Source: a virus. Taken from it: a DNA stretch of 29,893 nt. The translations under genes were made by a program, and so were the position numbers. The notes below the pieces were generated by a model. That model had not been told where the DNA came from. It was given only the letters and a program-made list of their open reading frames with translations, and did not search any database. The stretch lies in the UHGV virus genome UHGV-0172517; one strand, written 5' to 3'. Positions 2,959-29,893 of the stretch are shown here, piece by piece (position 1 is the first letter of the stretch; each line of letters begins with the position of its first letter).

Positions 2959-3768
2959 ATGAATAATCTGATGGTCATTGATGGTATTGAAGTTCGTCGT
3001 GATGCTTATGGGCGTTACAGCCTGAACGATCTGCATCGCGCAGCAGTAGCATCTGGTGCAAATGCCAGAACCAAGGAGCCGGGGAAGTTTCTTTCCAGCC
3101 AACAAACTGTTGAGCTTGTTCATGAATTGACCAACACCCAGAATTTGGGTGTTGACCCGGTGAGTGTGATTCATGGGGGAAATGAACGGGGAACTTATGT
3201 CTGCAAGGAACTGGTGTATGCCTATGCAATGTGGATCAGCCCGTCATTCCATCTGAAGGTGATCCGTACTTTCGATATGGTAACCAGCGCACCGGAAAAA
3301 TTATCCGGACAGGCTGCTGACAAGATGCAGGCTGGTGTGATTCTGCTGGACTTTATGCGCCGGGAGTTAAACCTGTCTAACTCATCTGTGCTTGGGGCCT
3401 GTCAGAAACTCCAGGAGGCTGTTGGCTTACCGAATCTGGCACCGCGCTATGCCATTGATGCTCCTGCTGATGCACACGATGGCTCAAGTCGCCCGACACT
3501 GTCACTGAGTGCACTGCTGAAACAGTATGGTATCCGCCTGACGGCTAATCAGGCATATCACCAGATGGTGAAGCTGGGGATCGTCGAGCAGCGCGAACGA
3601 TACAGCCGTACCGCGATTAACAACATCAAAAAATTCTGGTCGCTGACAGCGAAAGGCTGCATGTTCGGCAAGAACATCACCAGTCCCGCAAATCCGCGCG
3701 AGACGCAGCCGCATTTCTTCGAATCCCGATTCCCTGAGCTGTTAAAGCTGCTCGATACCGTTCATTGA
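2959..3768 (+). CDS. KilA-N domain protein (Roi/antirepressor-like)
   Basis: ATG at 2959 preceded by AAGAGGAGA SD; the ORF track's upstream Met at 2926 is unlikely. N-terminal ~100 aa (MVIDGIEVRRDAYGRYSLNDLHRAA…GGNERGTYVCKELVYAYAMWISPSFHLKVIRTFD) fits a KilA-N DNA-binding domain. Confidence 0.8.
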   Translation: MNNLMVIDGIEVRRDAYGRYSLNDLHRAAVASGANARTKEPGKFLSSQQTVELVHELTNTQNLGVDPVSVIHGGNERGTYVCKELVYAYAMWISPSFHLKVIRTFDMVTSAPEKLSGQAADKMQAGVILLDFMRRELNLSNSSVLGACQKLQEAVGLPNLAPRYAIDAPADAHDGSSRPTLSLSALLKQYGIRLTANQAYHQMVKLGIVEQRERYSRTAINNIKKFWSLTAKGCMFGKNITSPANPRETQPHFFESRFPELLKLLDTVH

Positions 3769-4778: not shown

Positions 4779-5531
4779 ATGAACCTTGAAGCCTTACCAA
4801 AATATTACTCCCCAAAATCTCCAAAATTGAGCGATGACGCACCGGCGACAGGCTCAGGTGGTTTAACGATTACGGATGTGATGGCTGCGCAGGGGATGGT
4901 GCAGTCGAAAGCACCGCTTGGGTTTGCCTTATTCCTGGCAAAAGTTGGTGTTCAGGATCCTCAATTTGCGATTGAAGGTCTGCTCAATTACGCGATGGCA
5001 CTGGATAACCCGACATTGAACAAATTGAGTGAAGAAACCCGGTTACAGATCATCCCTTACCTTGTGAATTTTGCCTTTGCTGATTATTCCAGGTCTGCGG
5101 CAAGTAAGGCTCGCTGTGAGCATTGTGCTGGTACTGGATTTCATAATGTATTGCGCGAAGTGGTGAAACACTCCAGAAGCGGGGAATCTGTTATCAAGGA
5201 AGAGTGGGTGAAGGAACTATGTCAGCATTGTCATGGTAAGGGAGAAGTCAGCACAGCGTGCAGAGGGTGTAAGGGTAAAGGTATTGTCCTGGATGAAAAA
5301 AGGACCCGGCTTCATGGCACGCCTGTTTATAAGATTTGTGGGCGTTGCAATGGAAATCGGTTTAGCCGTTTACCAACCACACTGGCGCGGCATCATGTCC
5401 AGAAGCTGGTACCAGACCTGACGGATTATCAGTGGTACAAAGGATATGCAGATGTCATTGATAAACTGGTGACAAAGTGCTGGCAGGAAGAAGCATATGC
5501 TGAGGCGCAATTAAGAAAAGTGACGAGATAA
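4779..5531 (+). CDS. Q: Late-gene antiterminator Q (lambda Q family, QuuQ-like, with extra Zn-binding CxxC motifs)
   Basis: 250 aa; GGAGA SD 7 nt upstream. N-terminus YSPKSPKLSDD…TDVMAAQGM resembles lambda Q (HSPKSPMMSD…TDVMAAMGM, from memory); multiple CxxC pairs. Sits immediately upstream of the lysis cassette. Confidence 0.8.
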   Translation: MNLEALPKYYSPKSPKLSDDAPATGSGGLTITDVMAAQGMVQSKAPLGFALFLAKVGVQDPQFAIEGLLNYAMALDNPTLNKLSEETRLQIIPYLVNFAFADYSRSAASKARCEHCAGTGFHNVLREVVKHSRSGESVIKEEWVKELCQHCHGKGEVSTACRGCKGKGIVLDEKRTRLHGTPVYKICGRCNGNRFSRLPTTLARHHVQKLVPDLTDYQWYKGYADVIDKLVTKCWQEEAYAEAQLRKVTR

Positions 5532-5559
5532 ATGATTTTCGCCGAAGATGGCGACATGA

Positions 5560-5600
5560 TTCTTGCATTTTTCAAAAAATTTGGTTAGGATTCTCCTAAC
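5560..5600 (+). promoter_or_regulatory. Candidate late promoter (PR'-like) and qut region
   Basis: TTGCAT (-35), 17-bp spacer, TAGGAT (-10) about 30 nt downstream of the Q stop, overlapping a small dyad ttaggattctcctaa. Position mirrors lambda PR'. Confidence 0.35.
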
Positions 5601-5635
5601 GATGGGCTTTGTGTGTCTACCGTTGATAATCTTCA

Positions 5636-5662
5636 AGAAACCGCCACCGAGCGGTTTTTTAT
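5636..5662 (+). terminator. Hairpin plus T-run (tR'-like candidate)
   Basis: gaaaccgc-caccgag-cggtttttt: a 7-bp stem followed by six T residues, ~40-60 nt downstream of the candidate late promoter. Confidence 0.4.
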
Positions 5663-5819
5663 TGATGTCAATTGTGTTTTTAAGGCTCTCCTTCCTTAAA
5701 GTGTGTTGTACAAAAAACTGGCAGCCAGCTACGCTCATTTTGAAAAAGTGACACCCTTCAATGTTTCTTTTGAATGGAATTGCTACCCATAAATCTCTAT
5801 CAAAAACAGGAGAGCATAT

Positions 5820-6062
5820 ATGGTGGATCGTTGTTCTGTTTGTGAGCAGTCATTAAGTTATTCACGAGAAGTTGAACAAGATGGCGTTGAATATAAATCT
5901 TGCCCAAAATGTTCTGCTGATGCCGGAGTGCACGTTTTTTATAAAACAATAGACTTTGGTTATAGGGATATGGGAGACGGAAGGCATATCGTTCAGTCAT
6001 GGTGTCCGGCTTGTCGTTCTGGTGAAAAACCTTCTATACCACCAGCATTTAAATGTTGTTAA
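5820..6062 (+). CDS. Small Cys-rich putative zinc-ribbon protein (moron; function unknown)
   Basis: 80 aa ORF with strong SD AGGAGAG 5 nt before the ATG; CxxC pairs at residues 5/8, 28/31, 62/65 and a terminal CC; AT-rich relative to flanks; followed by its own terminator. Confidence 0.55.
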   Translation: MVDRCSVCEQSLSYSREVEQDGVEYKSCPKCSADAGVHVFYKTIDFGYRDMGDGRHIVQSWCPACRSGEKPSIPPAFKCC

Positions 6063-6079
6063 CTCAATGAATTATAAAA

Positions 6080-6108
6080 AGAGGCTGCCTGTGGGCGGCC
6101 TTTTTTGT
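6080..6108 (+). terminator. Rho-independent terminator downstream of the small Cys-rich ORF
   Basis: aggctgcc-tgtg-ggcggcct, an 8-bp stem with one G-U pair, followed by tttttt. Confidence 0.6.
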
Positions 6109-6193
6109 GCACTACGCAACTTTTGCGACTCAGCGCTATAACCAGCTTCTTTCCCTTCACTCGTTGCACTTCCGATAACCGGAGGTGGGAATT

Positions 6194-6535
6194 ATGAAAA
6201 TGCATAACGATCCTCATTCCTGGTCTGACTTACTTGAATTGTTACAGAGCTGGTGGCGTGGAGACACACCGCTGGGCGCAGTAATTATGTCGATCGTTAT
6301 GGCTGGCTTGCGCATTGCCTATTTTGGCGGTGGTGGTGGCTGGAAGCGAAAAACGCTCGAGATTTTGCTCTGCGGCGCTCTGACGCTGACTTTTGCATCC
6401 GCTCTTGAGTATGTCGGATGGCCTAAATCGCTTTCTGTTGCCATTGGTGGTGGTGTTGGGTTGATCGGTGTCGATGCTATTCGTGGGGCTGCAATGAGAG
6501 TAATCGGTAACAAGTTCGGTGGCTCTAAGGAGTAA
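6194..6535 (+). CDS. Class I (lambda S-type, three-TMD) holin with Met-Lys-Met dual-start motif
   Basis: ORF track starts at GTG 6185; ATG at 6194 (GGAGG SD ~9 nt upstream) then Lys and a second ATG at 6200. Three hydrophobic segments and a charged C-terminus; topology and the MKM motif parallel lambda S107/S105. Immediately upstream of R. Confidence 0.8.
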   Translation: MKMHNDPHSWSDLLELLQSWWRGDTPLGAVIMSIVMAGLRIAYFGGGGGWKRKTLEILLCGALTLTFASALEYVGWPKSLSVAIGGGVGLIGVDAIRGAAMRVIGNKFGGSKE

Positions 6536-6538
6536 TTT

Positions 6539-7015
6539 ATGCAGGTACTAAATTCCCAGCGTAAAGCTTTCCTCGATATGTTGGCGTGGTCAGAAGGAAC
6601 GGATAACGGGCGACAGCCAACCCGCAATCACGGCTACGACGTTATTGTAGGTGGTGAGTTATTCACGGATTACTCCGATCACCCTCGCAAACTTGTCACG
6701 CTAAACCCCAAACTCAAATCAACAGCAGCCGGACGTTACCAGCTTCTTTCCCGTTGGTGGGATGCCTATCGTAAGCAGCTTGGCCTGAAAGACTTCTCTC
6801 CAAAAAGCCAGGACGCTGTTGCACTGCAGCAGATTAAGGAGCGTGGCGCTTTACCGATGATTGATCGCGGTGACATCCGTCAGGCAATCGACCGTTGCAG
6901 CAATATCTGGGCTTCACTGCCGGGCGCTGGTTATGGCCAGTTCGAGCATAAGGCTGACAGCCTGATTGCAAAATTCAAAGAGGCTGGCGGAACGGTCAGA
7001 GAGATTGAGGTATGA
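6539..7015 (+). CDS. R: Endolysin R (lytic transglycosylase)
   Basis: 158 aa; sequence …[57 protein letters not shown]… matches lambda R almost residue for residue as I recall it; AAGGAG SD. Confidence 0.95.
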
Positions 7016-7479
7016 GCAGAGTCACCGCGATTATTTATGCTCTGGTTATCTGCATCATCGTCTGCCTGTCGTGGGCGGTCAATCATTACCGTGATAACGC
7101 CATCGCCTACAAAGAACAGCGTGATAAAAAAGTCAGTGAGCTGAAGCAGGCGACCGCCACCATTACTGACATGCAGATGCGTCAGCGTGATGTTGCTGCG
7201 CTCGATGCAAAATACACGAAGGAGTTAGCTGATGCGAAAGCTGAAAATGATGCTCTTCGGCGCAAGCTTGATAATGGTGGTCGGGTGCTCGTCAAAGGAA
7301 AATGCTCTGTGCCATCCTCAGCCGAAACCTCCAGCGCCTCCGGCATGGGCAATGATGCCACCGTCGAACTCTCTCCAGTTGCTGGACGAAACGTTCTCGG
7401 TATCCGGGACGGAATCATCAGAGACCAGACAGCACTGAGAACGCTTCAGGAATATATCAGGACGCAATGCCTTCGATGA
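7012..7479 (+). CDS. Rz: Spanin inner-membrane subunit Rz (i-spanin)
   Basis: 155 aa; N-terminal [30 protein letters not shown]… and …[30 protein letters not shown] match lambda Rz; the C-terminal third diverges from lambda. ATGA overlap with R. Confidence 0.9.
7232..7438 (+). CDS. Rz1: Spanin outer-membrane lipoprotein subunit Rz1 (o-spanin), embedded in the +1 frame of Rz
   Basis: 68 aa ORF wholly inside Rz; AAGGAG SD 7 nt upstream; [21 protein letters not shown]… carries a lipobox (VVGC) and a Pro-rich mature region ([11 protein letters not shown]), like lambda Rz1. Confidence 0.85.
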
Positions 7480-24374: not shown

Positions 24375-27300
24375 ATGGGTAAAGGCAGCAGTAAGGGGCA
24401 TACCCCGCGCGAAGCGAAGGACAACCTGAAGTCCACGCAGCTGCTGAGTGTGATCGATGCCATCAGCGAAGGGCCGGTTGAAGGTCCGGTGGACGGATTA
24501 AAAAGCGTGCTGCTGAACAGTACGCCGGTGCTGGACAGTGAGGGGAATACCAATATCTCCGGCGTCACGGTGGTGTTCCGGACCGGTGAGCAGGAGCAGT
24601 CACCGCCGGAGGGATTTGAATCCTCCGGCTCCGAGACGGTGCTGGGTACGGAAGTGAAATATGACACGCCGATCACCCGGACCATCACGTCGGCAAACAT
24701 CGACCGTCTGCGCTTTACCTTCGGTGTACAGGCACTGGTGGAAACCACCTCAAAGGGGGACCGGAATCCGTCGGAAGTCCGCCTGCTGGTTCAGATACAG
24801 CGTAATGGTGGCTGGGTGACGGAAAAAGACATCACCATTAAGGGCAAAACCACCTCGCAGTATCTGGCCTCGGTGGTGGTGGATAACCTGCCGCCGCGCC
24901 CGTTCAATATCCGGATGCGCAGGATGACGCCGGACAGCACCACAGACCAGCTGCAGAACAAAACGCTCTGGTCGTCATACACCGAAATTATCGATGTGAA
25001 ACAGTGCTACCCGAACACGGCACTGGTCGGCGTACAGGTGGATTCGGAGCAGTTCGGCAGCCAGCAGGTGAGCCGTAATTATCATCTGCGCGGGCGTATT
25101 CTGCAGGTGCCGTCGAACTATAACCCGCAGACTCGGCAATACAGCGGTATCTGGGACGGAACGTTTAAGCCAGCATACAGCAATAACATGGCCTGGTGTC
25201 TGTGGGATATGCTGACCCATCCACGCTACGGCATGGGGAAACGTCTTGGTGCGGCGGATGTGGACAAATGGGCGCTGTATGTCATCGGCCAGTACTGCGA
25301 CCAGTCAGTGCCGGACGGCTTTGGCGGCACGGAGCCGCGCATCACCTGTAATGCGTACCTGACCACACAGCGCAAGGCGTGGGATGTGCTCAGTGATTTC
25401 TGCTCGGCGATGCGCTGTATGCCGGTATGGAACGGGCAGACGCTGACGTTCGTGCAGGACCGACCGTCGGATAAGGTGTGGACCTATAACCGCAGTAATG
25501 TGGTGATGCCGGATGATGGCGCGCCGTTCCGCTACAGCTTCAGCGCCCTGAAAGACCGCCATAATGCCGTTGAGGTGAACTGGATTGACCCGGACAACGG
25601 CTGGGAGACGGCGACAGAGCTTGTTGAAGATACGCAGGCCATTGCCCGTTACGGTCGTAATGTCACGAAGATGGATGCCTTTGGCTGTACCAGCCGGGGG
25701 CAGGCACACCGCGCCGGGCTGTGGCTGATTAAAACGGAACTGCTGGAGACGCAGACCGTGGATTTCAGCGTGGGTGCTGAAGGGCTTCGCCATGTACCGG
25801 GCGATGTCATTGAAATCTGCGATGATGACTATGTCGGTATCAGCACCGGTGGTCGCGTGCTGGCGGTGAACAGCCAGACCCGGACGCTGACGCTCGACCG
25901 TGAAATCACGCTGCCATCCTCCGGTACCACGCTGATAAGCCTTGTTGACGGTCAGGGTAATCCGGTCAGCGTGGAGGTCCAGTCCGTCACCGACGGCGTG
26001 AAGGTGAAAGTGAGCCGTGTTCCTGACGGCGTTGCTGAATACAGCGTGTGGGGGCTGAAGCTGCCGACGCTGCGCCAGCGCCTGTTCCGCTGTGTGAGTA
26101 TCCGTGAGAACGACGACGGCACGTATGCCATCACCGCCGTGCAGCATGTGCCGGAAAAAGAGGCCATCGTGGATAACGGGGCGCACTTTGACGGCGACCA
26201 GAGCGGCACGGTGAATGGTGTCACGCCGCCAGCGGTGCAGCACCTGACCGCCGAAGTCACCGCAGACAGCGGGGAATATCAGGTGCTGGCGCGCTGGGAC
26301 ACACCGAAGGTGGTGAAGGGCGTGAGCTTCCTGCTCCGTCTGACCGTAACAGCGGACGACGGCAGTGAGCGGCTGGTCAGCACGGCCCGGACGACGGAAA
26401 CCACATACCGCTTCACACAACTGGCGTTGGGGAACTACAGGCTGACAGTCCGGGCGGTAAATGCGTGGGGACAGCAGGGCGATCCGGCATCGGTATCGTT
26501 CCGGATTGCCGCACCGGCAGCGCCGTCTCGGATTGAGCTGACACCGGGCTATTTTCAGATAACCGCCACGCCGCATCTTGCGGTTTATGACCCGACGGTA
26601 CAGTTTGAGTTCTGGTTCTCGGAAAAACGGATTGCGGATATCAGGCAGGTTGAAACCAGCGCGCGTTATCTTGGTACGGCACTGTACTGGATAGCCGCCA
26701 GTATCAATATCAAACCGGGCCATGATTATTACTTTTATATCCGCAGTGTGAATACTGTTGGCAAATCGGCATTCGTGGAGGCTGTTGGCCAGCCGAGTGA
26801 TGATGCATCCGGCTATCTGGATTTTTTCAAAGGAGAGATAGGGAAAACCCATCTGGCTCAGGAGTTGTGGACGCAGATTGATAACGGTCAGCTTGCGCCT
26901 GACCTGGCTGAAATCAGGACGTCCATTACGGATGTCAGCAATGAAATCACGCAGACTGTCAATAAGAAACTGGAAGACCAGAGTGCGGCGATCCAGCAGA
27001 TACAGAAGGTTCAGGTTGATACAAATAATAACCTGAACAGCATGTGGGCTGTGAAGCTGCAGCAGATGCAGGACGGACGCCTTTATATCGCGGGTATTGG
27101 TGCCGGTATTGAGAACACCCCTGACGGCATGCAGAGTCAGGTGCTGCTGGCGGCGGACAGGATTGCGATGGTTAATCCTGCGAATGGCAACACAAAGCCG
27201 ATGTTTGTTGGTCAGGGCGATCAGATATTCATGAACGAAGTGTTCCTGAAATATCTGACGGCTCCCACCATTACCAGCGGCGGTAATCCTCCGGCATTTT

Positions 27301-27854
27301 CCCTGACACCGGACGGGCGGCTGACGGCGAAAAATGCCGATATCAGCGGTAACGTGAATGCGAACTCCGGGACGCTCAACAACGTCACGATTAACGAGAA
27401 CTGCCGGGTTCTGGGAAAACTGTCCGCGAACCAGATTGAAGGCGATCTCGTTAAAACGGTGGGCAAAGCTTTCCCCCGGGACTCCCGTGCACCGGAGCGG
27501 TGGCCATCAGGAACCATTACCGTCAGGGTTTATGACGATCAGCCGTTTGACCGGCAAATTGTTATCCCGGCGGTGGCATTCAGTGGCGCTAAACATGAGC
27601 AAGATCATACTGATATCTACTCCTCATGCCGTCTGATAGTGCGGAAAAACGGTGCTGAAATTTATAACCGTACCGCGCTGGATAATACGCTGATTTACAG
27701 TGGCGTTATTGATATGCCTGCCGGTCACGGTCACATGACGCTGGAGTTTTCGGTGTCAGCATGGCTGGTAAATGACTGGTATCCCACAGCAAGTATCAGC
27801 GATTTGCTGGTTGTGGTGATGAAGAAAGCCACCGCAGGCATCAGTATCAGCTGA
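24375..27854 (+). CDS. J: Central tail fibre / host specificity protein J with a divergent C-terminal receptor-binding region
   Basis: 1159 aa (lambda J is 1132 aa); the N-terminal ~800 aa match lambda J as recalled ([24 protein letters not shown]…); the C-terminal ~340 aa are homologous but clearly diverged. Confidence 0.93.
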
Positions 27855-27873
27855 ATTTTATAACCCCAATACG

Positions 27874-27897
27874 GGCGTCAGAAATGACGCCTTTTTT
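27874..27897 (+). terminator. Rho-independent terminator after J
   Basis: ggcgtca-gaaa-tgacgcc: a perfect 7-bp stem with GAAA loop, followed by tttttt. Confidence 0.75.
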
Positions 27898-27921
27898 ATT
27901 GCAGAAAAGCGAGAGGTAATT

Positions 27922-28521
27922 ATGCGTAAATTATGTGCTGTTATTCTGTCCGCAGTAGTCTGGCTGGTTGCCGCTGGTACGCCAGCGAGCGCAGCAGAGC
28001 ATCAGTCCACACTAAGCGCCGGGTATCTTCAGACCTATACTGATATGCCAGGCAGTGATGACCTGAAGGGCATTAACGTGAAATACCGTTATGAATTTAC
28101 GGACACGCTGGGGCTGGTGACGTCATTCAGTTATGCCAATGCCAAAGATGAGCAAAAAACGCATTACAGCGATACCCGCTGGCATGAAGATTCCGTGCGT
28201 AACCGCTGGTTCAGCATGATGGCGGGGCCATCTGTACGCGTGAATGAATGGTTCAGTGCTTATGCGATGGCAGGTGTGGCTTACAGCCGTGTTTCGACGT
28301 TCTCCGGGGATTATCTCCGCGTAACTGACAACAAGGGGAAAACGCACGATGTGCTGACCGGAAGTGATGACGATCGCCACAGCAACACGTCTCTGGCGTG
28401 GGGAGCTGGCGTGCAGTTTAACCCGACCGAATCCGTGGCCATTGATATTGCTTATGAAGGCTCCGGCAGTGGCGACTGGCGCACTGACGGTTTCATCGTG
28501 GGTGTCGGTTATAAATTCTGA
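27922..28521 (+). CDS. lom: Lom-like outer membrane beta-barrel protein (Ail/Lom/PagC/OmpX family)
   Basis: 199 aa; N-terminal signal peptide (MRKLCAVILSAVVWLVAAGTPASAAE); conserved GINVKYRYE and C-terminal DIAYEGSGSGDWRTDGFIVGVGYKF shared with lambda Lom; the rest is diverged. GAGAGG SD. Confidence 0.9.
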   Translation: MRKLCAVILSAVVWLVAAGTPASAAEHQSTLSAGYLQTYTDMPGSDDLKGINVKYRYEFTDTLGLVTSFSYANAKDEQKTHYSDTRWHEDSVRNRWFSMMAGPSVRVNEWFSAYAMAGVAYSRVSTFSGDYLRVTDNKGKTHDVLTGSDDDRHSNTSLAWGAGVQFNPTESVAIDIAYEGSGSGDWRTDGFIVGVGYKF

Positions 28522-28547: not shown

Positions 28548-28575
28548 AGCCCGCCGGTTCAGGCGGGCTTTTTTG
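28548..28575 (+). terminator. Rho-independent terminator after lom
   Basis: agcccgcc-ggttca-ggcgggct: a perfect 8-bp stem followed by tttttt. Confidence 0.75.
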
Positions 28576-28585
28576 TGGAGTGGAT

Positions 28586-29893
28586 ATGGCAGCAGTAAAA
28601 ATCTCAGGTGTGCTGAAAGATGGTGCGGGAAAACCAATACAGAACTGCACTATTCAACTGAAGGCAAAGCGTAACAGCACCACGGTACTGGTGAACACGG
28701 TGGCCTCTGAAAATCCGGATGAAGCCGGGCGTTACAGCATGGATGTTGAGTATGGCCAGTACAGCGTCACCCTGCTGGTTGAAGGTTTTCCGCCTTCACA
28801 TGCCGGGACCATTACCGTCTATGAAGGCTCCAGACCAGGTACGCTGAATGATTTTCTCGGTGCCATGACGGAAGATGATGTCATGCCGGAGGCATTGCGT
28901 CGTTTTGAGGCAATGGTGGAAGAAGTGGCACGCAACGCCGAAGCCGCCTCTCAGAGCGCAGCGGCGGCAAAGAAATCCGAAACTGCAGCGGCATCATCAA
29001 AGAACGCGGCGAAAACCTCAGAAACGAATGCAGCTAACAGCGCACAGGCGGCAGCGTCCTCGCAGACTGCATCGGCAAACTCCGCGACAGCAGCCAAAAA
29101 ATCAGAAACCAACGCGAAAAACAGCGAGACAGCCGCAAAGACGAGCGAAACCAACGCAAAGTCCAGCCAGACGGCAGCGAAAACCAGCGAAACGAATGCC
29201 AAAGCCAGCGAAACTGCGGCAAAAAACAGTCAGGATGCAGCGGCCCAAAGCGAGAGTGCCGCAGCTGGTTCTGCAAGTGCGGCAGCTAATAGCCAAAAAG
29301 CTGCAAAAACCAGTGAAACTAACGCAAAGACGAGTGAAACAAAAGCAGCAGCCAGCGAGATAGAAGCAACGTCAGCCGCAACAAGAGCAGAGAATGCAGC
29401 CCGGATTGCAGAAGATGCCGCTGATCCTGCTTCAGTCCCTCCGCTTCCTGATATCTGGCTACCCTTGAATGATTCTCTGGAAGCGATAACAGGGTATGCC
29501 CCGGGCTATAAAACAATAACCATCGGCAGTGATGAAATAACAATGCCTGTTAATGGCATATGCCAATTTAGCCGCGCTTCATCAGCAACGTATATTGATA
29601 AGTCCGGGCATATTACCGTGGCAGGGAATAACGTTCCTCGTTTTGAAAAATATGGTTTGCTGATAGAGAATCAGCGAACAAACATGTTCGTAAATAGTTT
29701 TAATCCTGATGCGTGGAATAAAAGCGGTGGTATATCTGTAACATCATCAACAGATGAATTTGAGTTTAAATATGGACGTTTCACAGTAGGAAGCGACATA
29801 GCAGGAACGACAACAGGGAGAAATATATGCACAGTTGCTGGTAATAAAGGCATAGATGTGACTGGCGATGATCAGTACAGTAAAGGTCCGTAT
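28586..29893 (+). CDS. stf: Side tail fibre protein Stf-like (5' portion; runs off the window end)
   Basis: Hand-translated open frame of 436 codons with no stop to the window end, so absent from the ORF track. N-terminus MAAVKISGVLKDGAGKPIQNCTIQLKAKRNSTTVLVNTV…GRYSMDVEYGQYSV matches lambda Stf; then an Ala/Ser/Thr-rich repeat region and an AT-rich distal part. Confidence 0.8.
   Translation, partial: MAAVKISGVLKDGAGKPIQNCTIQLKAKRNSTTVLVNTVASENPDEAGRYSMDVEYGQYSVTLLVEGFPPSHAGTITVYEGSRPGTLNDFLGAMTEDDVMPEALRRFEAMVEEVARNAEAASQSAAAAKKSETAAASSKNAAKTSETNAANSAQAAASSQTASANSATAAKKSETNAKNSETAAKTSETNAKSSQTAAKTSETNAKASETAAKNSQDAAAQSESAAAGSASAAANSQKAAKTSETNAKTSETKAAASEIEATSAATRAENAARIAEDAADPASVPPLPDIWLPLNDSLEAITGYAPGYKTITIGSDEITMPVNGICQFSRASSATYIDKSGHITVAGNNVPRFEKYGLLIENQRTNMFVNSFNPDAWNKSGGISVTSSTDEFEFKYGRFTVGSDIAGTTTGRNICTVAGNKGIDVTGDDQYSKGPY
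28960..29345 (+). repeat. Imperfect tandem ~24-nt coding repeats (AKTSETNA-type octapeptides) within stf
   Basis: Recurring gcgaaaacctcagaaacgaatgca / gcgaaaaccagcgaaacgaatgcc / gcaaagacgagcgaaaccaacgca / gcaaaaaccagtgaaactaacgca units. Confidence 0.6.

Follow-up and report, generated by a model that had tools for sequence, protein, structure and literature searches.

The window analysed here, the whole 29,893-nt stretch of the virus genome UHGV-0172517, carries replication-region, Dam, RusA, Q, holin and Rz genes upstream of a structural module that, from Nu1 onward, is ~97.6% identical to lambda at the DNA level. The tail genes are ordered H-M-L-K-I-J and are followed by lom and stf, as in lambda, 434 and PhiR55_1, and the genes neighbouring J, from Nu1 to stf, are all present and intact. 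The downstream end of the module is laid out as follows.

24375..27854, plus strand: gene J, encoding the tip attachment protein / central tail fibre, a complete ORF (1159 aa and a stop codon; from the ORF list)
27873..27899, plus strand: terminator-like hairpin (27873-27892) and T-run just after J (pattern scan)
27922..28521, plus strand: lom homologue, an Ail/Lom outer-membrane protein of 199 aa (Pfam Ail_Lom, E = 1.1e-126)
28548-28569: second hairpin, downstream of lom
28586..29893, plus strand: 5' portion of stf, the side tail fibre gene, which runs off the window end without a stop codon (Pfam phage_tail_N, E = 1.8e-67)

The lom gene occupies the position it has in lambda, 434, PhiR55_1 and VT1-Sakai; it is a neighbour of J, outside the receptor-binding apparatus. 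The stf gene is a second host-range determinant of the same module.

Several further ORFs were seen in the window. A 515-aa antisense ORF lies inside J (25305-26852, minus strand), and shorter ORFs overlap the gene at 27221-27517 (minus strand) and 27358-27636 (plus strand); all are probably by-products of the long J coding frame. Within stf, but in another frame, a 162-aa Lys/Arg/Gln-rich ORF (28875-29363, plus strand) overlaps the Ala/Ser/Thr-rich repetitive part of Stf, with its 'KTSETNAK'-like units, and is most likely an out-of-frame artefact. The Q-to-holin region (window 4779-6535) differs from that of the closest sequenced relatives, in that it encodes a 250-aa Q (Pfam Antiterm) and contains no porin gene; in PhiR29_2 (4783-7257) Q is 127 aa long, and after it, on the opposite strand, comes a gene annotated as an OmpD-like porin. 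Between holin and Rz, at the position expected for the endolysin, a 158-aa ORF (6539-7015, plus strand) gave no Pfam match at E <= 0.001.

The J frame runs uninterrupted across its 1159 codons, and all six Pfam models of lambda-type J score above their cut-offs, complete and in the expected order:

J residues 86-207: FNIII-A_GpJ
J residues 330-498: Phage-tail_3 (hub)
J residues 610-714: Ig_J
J residues 716-818: Ig_J_second
J residues 872-1000: Phage_Tail_Tip
J residues 1029-1159: Ig_GpJ_C (E = 2.4e-37)

Overall the protein is 84% identical to lambda J. By its domains, its gene position and its identity outside the specificity region, it is a lambda-type tip attachment protein J. The identity is distributed very unevenly, and the gene can be divided as follows, with names for the shaft and fibre domains taken from Ge & Wang 2024.

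24375..26789, plus strand: lambda-like part (residues 1-805), comprising the hub domains and two FNIII/Ig domains, 790/805 residues (98.1%) identical to lambda J
26790..27209, plus strand: first diverged block (residues 806-945), made up of the alpha-helical shaft and the upper beta-prism fibre; the 28 extra residues fall within nt 26880-26972
27210..27401, plus strand: conserved straight-fibre base (residues 946-1009), DNA 84-90% identical to lambda, the likely crossover zone for exchange of the receptor-binding domain
27402..27851, plus strand: receptor-binding domain (RBD; residues 1010-1159), 1A2-type, a predicted OmpC binder

The original prediction placed the departure from lambda J near residue 810 (nt 26800), after some 800 residues that match lambda, and the alignments agree with it closely: the first cluster of substitutions falls at residues 806/807/812, DNA identity to lambda begins dropping at ~nt 26783-26810, and the first 2430 nt of J retain 96.3% DNA identity to lambda. 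The predicted excess of 27 aa over lambda J (1132 aa) is likewise correct, and in the alignment it resolves into 28 extra residues within positions 836-866, minus one residue that is absent in the RBD. The remainder had been described as only loosely similar to lambda, which holds for residues 806-945 and 1010-1159 but not for the conserved block between them. Residues ~806-945 are 28-67% identical to lambda versus 96-99% to phage 21, with DNA identity to lambda of 26-50% over nt 26805-27074; residues 946-1009 are back to ~90% lambda-like; and beyond 27390 the DNA identity falls again, to about 50-55% through the gene end. By domain, the protein identities to the window J are:

residues 821-910 (alpha-helical shaft): lambda 28%, 434 29%, phage 21 99%, PhiR55_1 100%, A8 not applicable
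residues 911-967 (upper beta-prism fibre): lambda 67%, 434 67%, phage 21 96%, PhiR55_1 100%, A8 not applicable
residues 968-1009 (fibre base): lambda 90%, 434 86%, phage 21 93%, PhiR55_1 100%, A8 95%
residues 1010-1159 (RBD): lambda 42% (43% by tblastn), 434 41%, phage 21 64%, PhiR55_1 98%, A8 59%

Many phage J genes stop matching the window after J nt 3029 or 3100 (window nt 27403 or 27474). These end points fall at the 3' edge of the conserved block, immediately past it, which fits RBD exchange by homologous recombination there. The shaft block and the RBD are, as judged from these alignments, inherited independently of each other, since phage 21 has the window's shaft with another RBD, while phage 434 has lambda's shaft with yet another. 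The best explanation for the whole pattern is that J belongs to a lambda-like siphovirus and was assembled by recombination from three sequence sources, namely a lambda-like hub and FNIII part, a longer shaft of the phage 21 type, and an RBD of the 1A2 class. An origin of the 28-residue insertion as an internal duplication or repeat was ruled out, since 26700-27860 contains no direct repeats; hairpins inside J were weak and unremarkable. As one continuous helix, these 28 residues would amount to ~4 nm more (at the standard rise of 1.5 A per residue).

When aligned with lambdoid J proteins, the C-terminus is thus not highly identical to that of lambda, and the RBD belongs neither to the lambda class (lambda, HK630, O276) nor to that of phage 434. 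Its fold is common to the A8 / phage 21 class, but at 59% and 64% identity to these two the window RBD falls in a class apart from theirs. These sequence classes would also have different OmpC allele preferences, as set out below.

The RBD does match that of gpJ 1A2, which was shown experimentally to use OmpC and not to need LamB. Both 1A2 and A8 are constructs of Brodel et al. 2024 (Nature, PMC11338833), who fused the C-termini of natural E. coli prophage gpJ variants after residue 964 of lambda gpJ and obtained particles that use OmpC, not LamB. Lambda residue 964 aligns to window residue 992, and the natural 1A2 segment shares at least 94% identity with window residues 993-1159 over readable positions, a lower bound rather than an exact figure, as the 1A2 sequence comes from an OCR'd supplement with indels. 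Plain tblastn against this OCR'd DNA broke at the indels; a frameshift-tolerant dynamic-programming alignment was used, in which the window and 1A2 agree at 168 of the 178 positions that could be read between SLTPDG and the C-terminus. The published 1A2 DNA appears to have been recoded, with ~70% nucleotide versus at least 94% protein identity to the window. Apparent differences from 1A2 lie at residues 1050/1051, 1069, 1076/1077, 1086/1087, 1109, 1134 and 1157 (5-10 substitutions). The likely real ones are at 1069, 1076, 1077, 1109, 1134 and 1157; the pairs 1050/1051 and 1086/1087 adjoin OCR frame errors in the 1A2 text.

The 1A2 chimera differs from lambda only after residue 964, and so its receptor choice maps to the segment that it shares with the window. 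By alignment, the whole of this switch-conferring segment is present in the window almost unchanged. The delivery experiments of Brodel et al. 2024 (PMC11338833) show what it does in lambda particles: those bearing 1A2 gave 5% delivery at MOI 50 into wild-type MG1655, which has LamB, and 2% into a lamB/ompC double-deletion MG1655 supplied with K-12 OmpC, versus ~98% GFP+ cells at MOI 242 (source data) when the same double deletion carried plasmid-borne EDL933 OmpC. Twenty of 23 OmpC alleles were accepted by 1A2, the failures being G2, G40 and G1, for which the delivery values equal those in the K-12 MG1655 OmpC panel; K-12 OmpC is accepted by A8 but not by 1A2. From homology to 1A2 we infer that the receptor of the window J is most likely OmpC, with a probability of roughly 0.8. 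Docking would probably be allele-selective in the manner of 1A2, with most E. coli OmpC variants accepted and the K-12 variant not.

The original prediction had named either a different outer-membrane receptor or a LamB variant. The first part is supported, with OmpC as the most likely candidate on the evidence of an RBD only 42% identical to that of lambda and of the match to 1A2; the second is unsupported. A diverged RBD might in principle still act on LamB, or on the LamB allele of the natural host, with its divergence tracking LamB variation, and it would be consistent with this that the Ig_GpJ_C fold is kept as in lambda and that LamB and OmpC are both trimeric beta-barrel porins. The low RBD identity to lambda argues the other way, as does the contrast in delivery of the near-identical 1A2 between LamB+ wild-type K-12 (~5%) and a lamB deletion with a suitable OmpC (~98%), and we consider continued use of LamB extremely unlikely.

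A second possibility concerns the residues that separate the window from 1A2, a few substitutions that could have changed specificity to another outer-membrane protein, such as OmpF, PhoE, an OmpN/NmpC-type porin or a non-porin. According to the literature cited, one changed residue in lambda J can shift receptor use from LamB to OmpF, and a few substitutions can open a new porin receptor. Yet sites 1076/1077 vary between PhiR55_1 and the window too, and Stx and PPompW phages share a 97% identical RBD, so that the differences look like ordinary allele polymorphism. Furthermore, 1A2 itself tolerates most of the OmpC alleles tried, and even a class as distant as A8 still binds OmpC. A switch to another protein is therefore unlikely, and OmpC remains the preferred reading. 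A 2026 receptor-prediction preprint was set aside as a guide, as it treats Drexlerviridae GpJ and leaves out lambda's RBD. In the literature searched (PhiR55/PhiR46, 9WCA/9WCB, ECOR temperate phage panel), no receptor was reported for any natural phage of the 1A2 RBD class, and none was found for PhiR55_1.

Structural comparisons point in the same direction as the 1A2 match. The top PDB sequence matches were to A8 gpJ 713 (9wca/9wcb, E = 9.5e-126), with lambda gpJ (8xcj, E = 7.6e-106) behind. Residues 968-1159 were also modelled as a monomer with AlphaFold2 (mean pLDDT 73.7, with the Ig domain above this average), and the best fold matches of the model were again 9wca/9wcb, then lambda 8xck/8xcj. 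In the PDB, 9wcb is titled 'Open state of A8 gpJ 713 central tail fiber with OmpC G17 from E. coli EDL933', and a query with OmpC independently returned the same entry. Lambda gpJ (P03749; 8xck closed, 8xcj LamB-bound) has the family, domain order and fold of the window J but a shaft block that is 28 residues shorter, and its receptor is LamB (Ge & Wang 2024). A8 gpJ (9wca; 9wcb with EDL933 OmpC) binds OmpC through an RBD of a separate class from the window's.

By analogy with the lambda-LamB and A8-OmpC structures, J would trimerise, with its hub domains closing the tail tube and the shaft, beta-prism and RBD making up the central fibre. The distal loops of the RBD would dock on the extracellular face of the OmpC trimer rather than on LamB. 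After binding, the RBD would open, the prism twist, the shaft flip and the FNIII strings dissociate, and the tip would open; the triggering cascade is expected to be the same as in lambda.

Among the other relatives, phage 21 J shares the long shaft of the window. Its RBD (J at OL657228 1501-4983) is 81.5% identical to the OmpC-binding RBD of A8 (9wca/9wcb), which suggests that the phage 21 group, including many infant-gut 'ev' phages, may also have an A8-like OmpC-type RBD. Phage 434 J (OL657227 1506-4919) has a lambda-type shaft, and its RBD shares only 36-43% identity with those of lambda, A8, phage 21 and the window. Phage 434 is a classical OmpC user (literature cited in Ge & Wang 2024), and since its RBD is far from those of A8 and the window, OmpC use seems to be spread over at least three RBD classes that differ greatly in sequence.

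The J of PhiR55_1 (PV340571) is 97.2% identical to the window J in DNA over the whole gene; its shaft and fibre blocks are the same as the window's, three residues differ in the RBD, and the I-J-lom-stf order is shared. The 1A2 construct, in contrast, has lambda's short shaft and upper fibre where the window has the 28-residue-longer block of the phage 21 type. PhiR55_1 forms plaques and is recorded on E. coli C, and its near-identical J thus indicates that the natural combination of long shaft and 1A2-type RBD is functional. It is an ECOR-derived temperate phage of the panel of Brenes & Laub 2025 and is reported to be independent of ManYZ, a finding that concerns the tape-measure protein and not J.

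The allele is widespread. Megablast matches covering at least 80% of the 456-nt RBD segment were present in 3350 of 5426 complete E. coli genomes; 1823 records had a best match of at least 95% identity, and the usual annotation was 'phage attachment tail tip protein J'. Of 243 phage records with a homologous RBD, 53 showed 95-99% protein identity, among them Stx2a-converting phages, PPompW prophages and PhiR55_1. The other RBD classes were more distant from the window: ~64% for the ev/1H12 group (as for phage 21 by direct alignment), 58-61% for BP-4795 and Stx1a phages, 43% for the lambda class, and 39-41% for mEp460, cdtI and others. Protein database matches came nearly all from E. coli and in a few cases from E. 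albertii or Shigella; most were gene fragments. The VT1-Sakai Stx1 prophage (AP000400 1566-5038) carries this RBD allele (95.9% DNA identity), in a J that is annotated as split in two by mutation, so some genomic copies of the allele are inactive.

Such copies raise the question of whether the window J could be a decaying remnant in a defective prophage, with no current receptor function, for which the truncated J of VT1-Sakai and the many fragmentary database entries would be precedents. The window J itself has an uninterrupted frame of 1159 codons and six complete Pfam domains, its adjacent genes from Nu1 to stf are intact, and a 97% identical gene serves a plaque-forming phage. We regard decay as very unlikely, and a working J directed to OmpC as the better account.

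Perhaps the few substitutions relative to 1A2, or the pairing of the window RBD with the 28-residue-longer shaft, alter receptor behaviour within the OmpC reading, for example by allowing use of K-12 OmpC, use of OmpC together with another porin, or a changed triggering of ejection. We think this quite unlikely; if true, it would be a natural case of fine-scale receptor retuning inside one RBD class.

The window J is a common, already described allele, produced by the well-known modular evolution of lambdoid tail fibres, and it implies no new biology. Modular exchange of the J RBD is the textbook mechanism of host change in lambdoid phages, and the 1A2 class has already served to direct lambda particles in the gut to OmpC. 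The practical consequence is for annotation: a J of this allele may provisionally be labelled as having an 'OmpC-type (1A2-like) RBD' rather than as 'LamB-binding like lambda', and the class labelled in this way includes O157 Stx phages.
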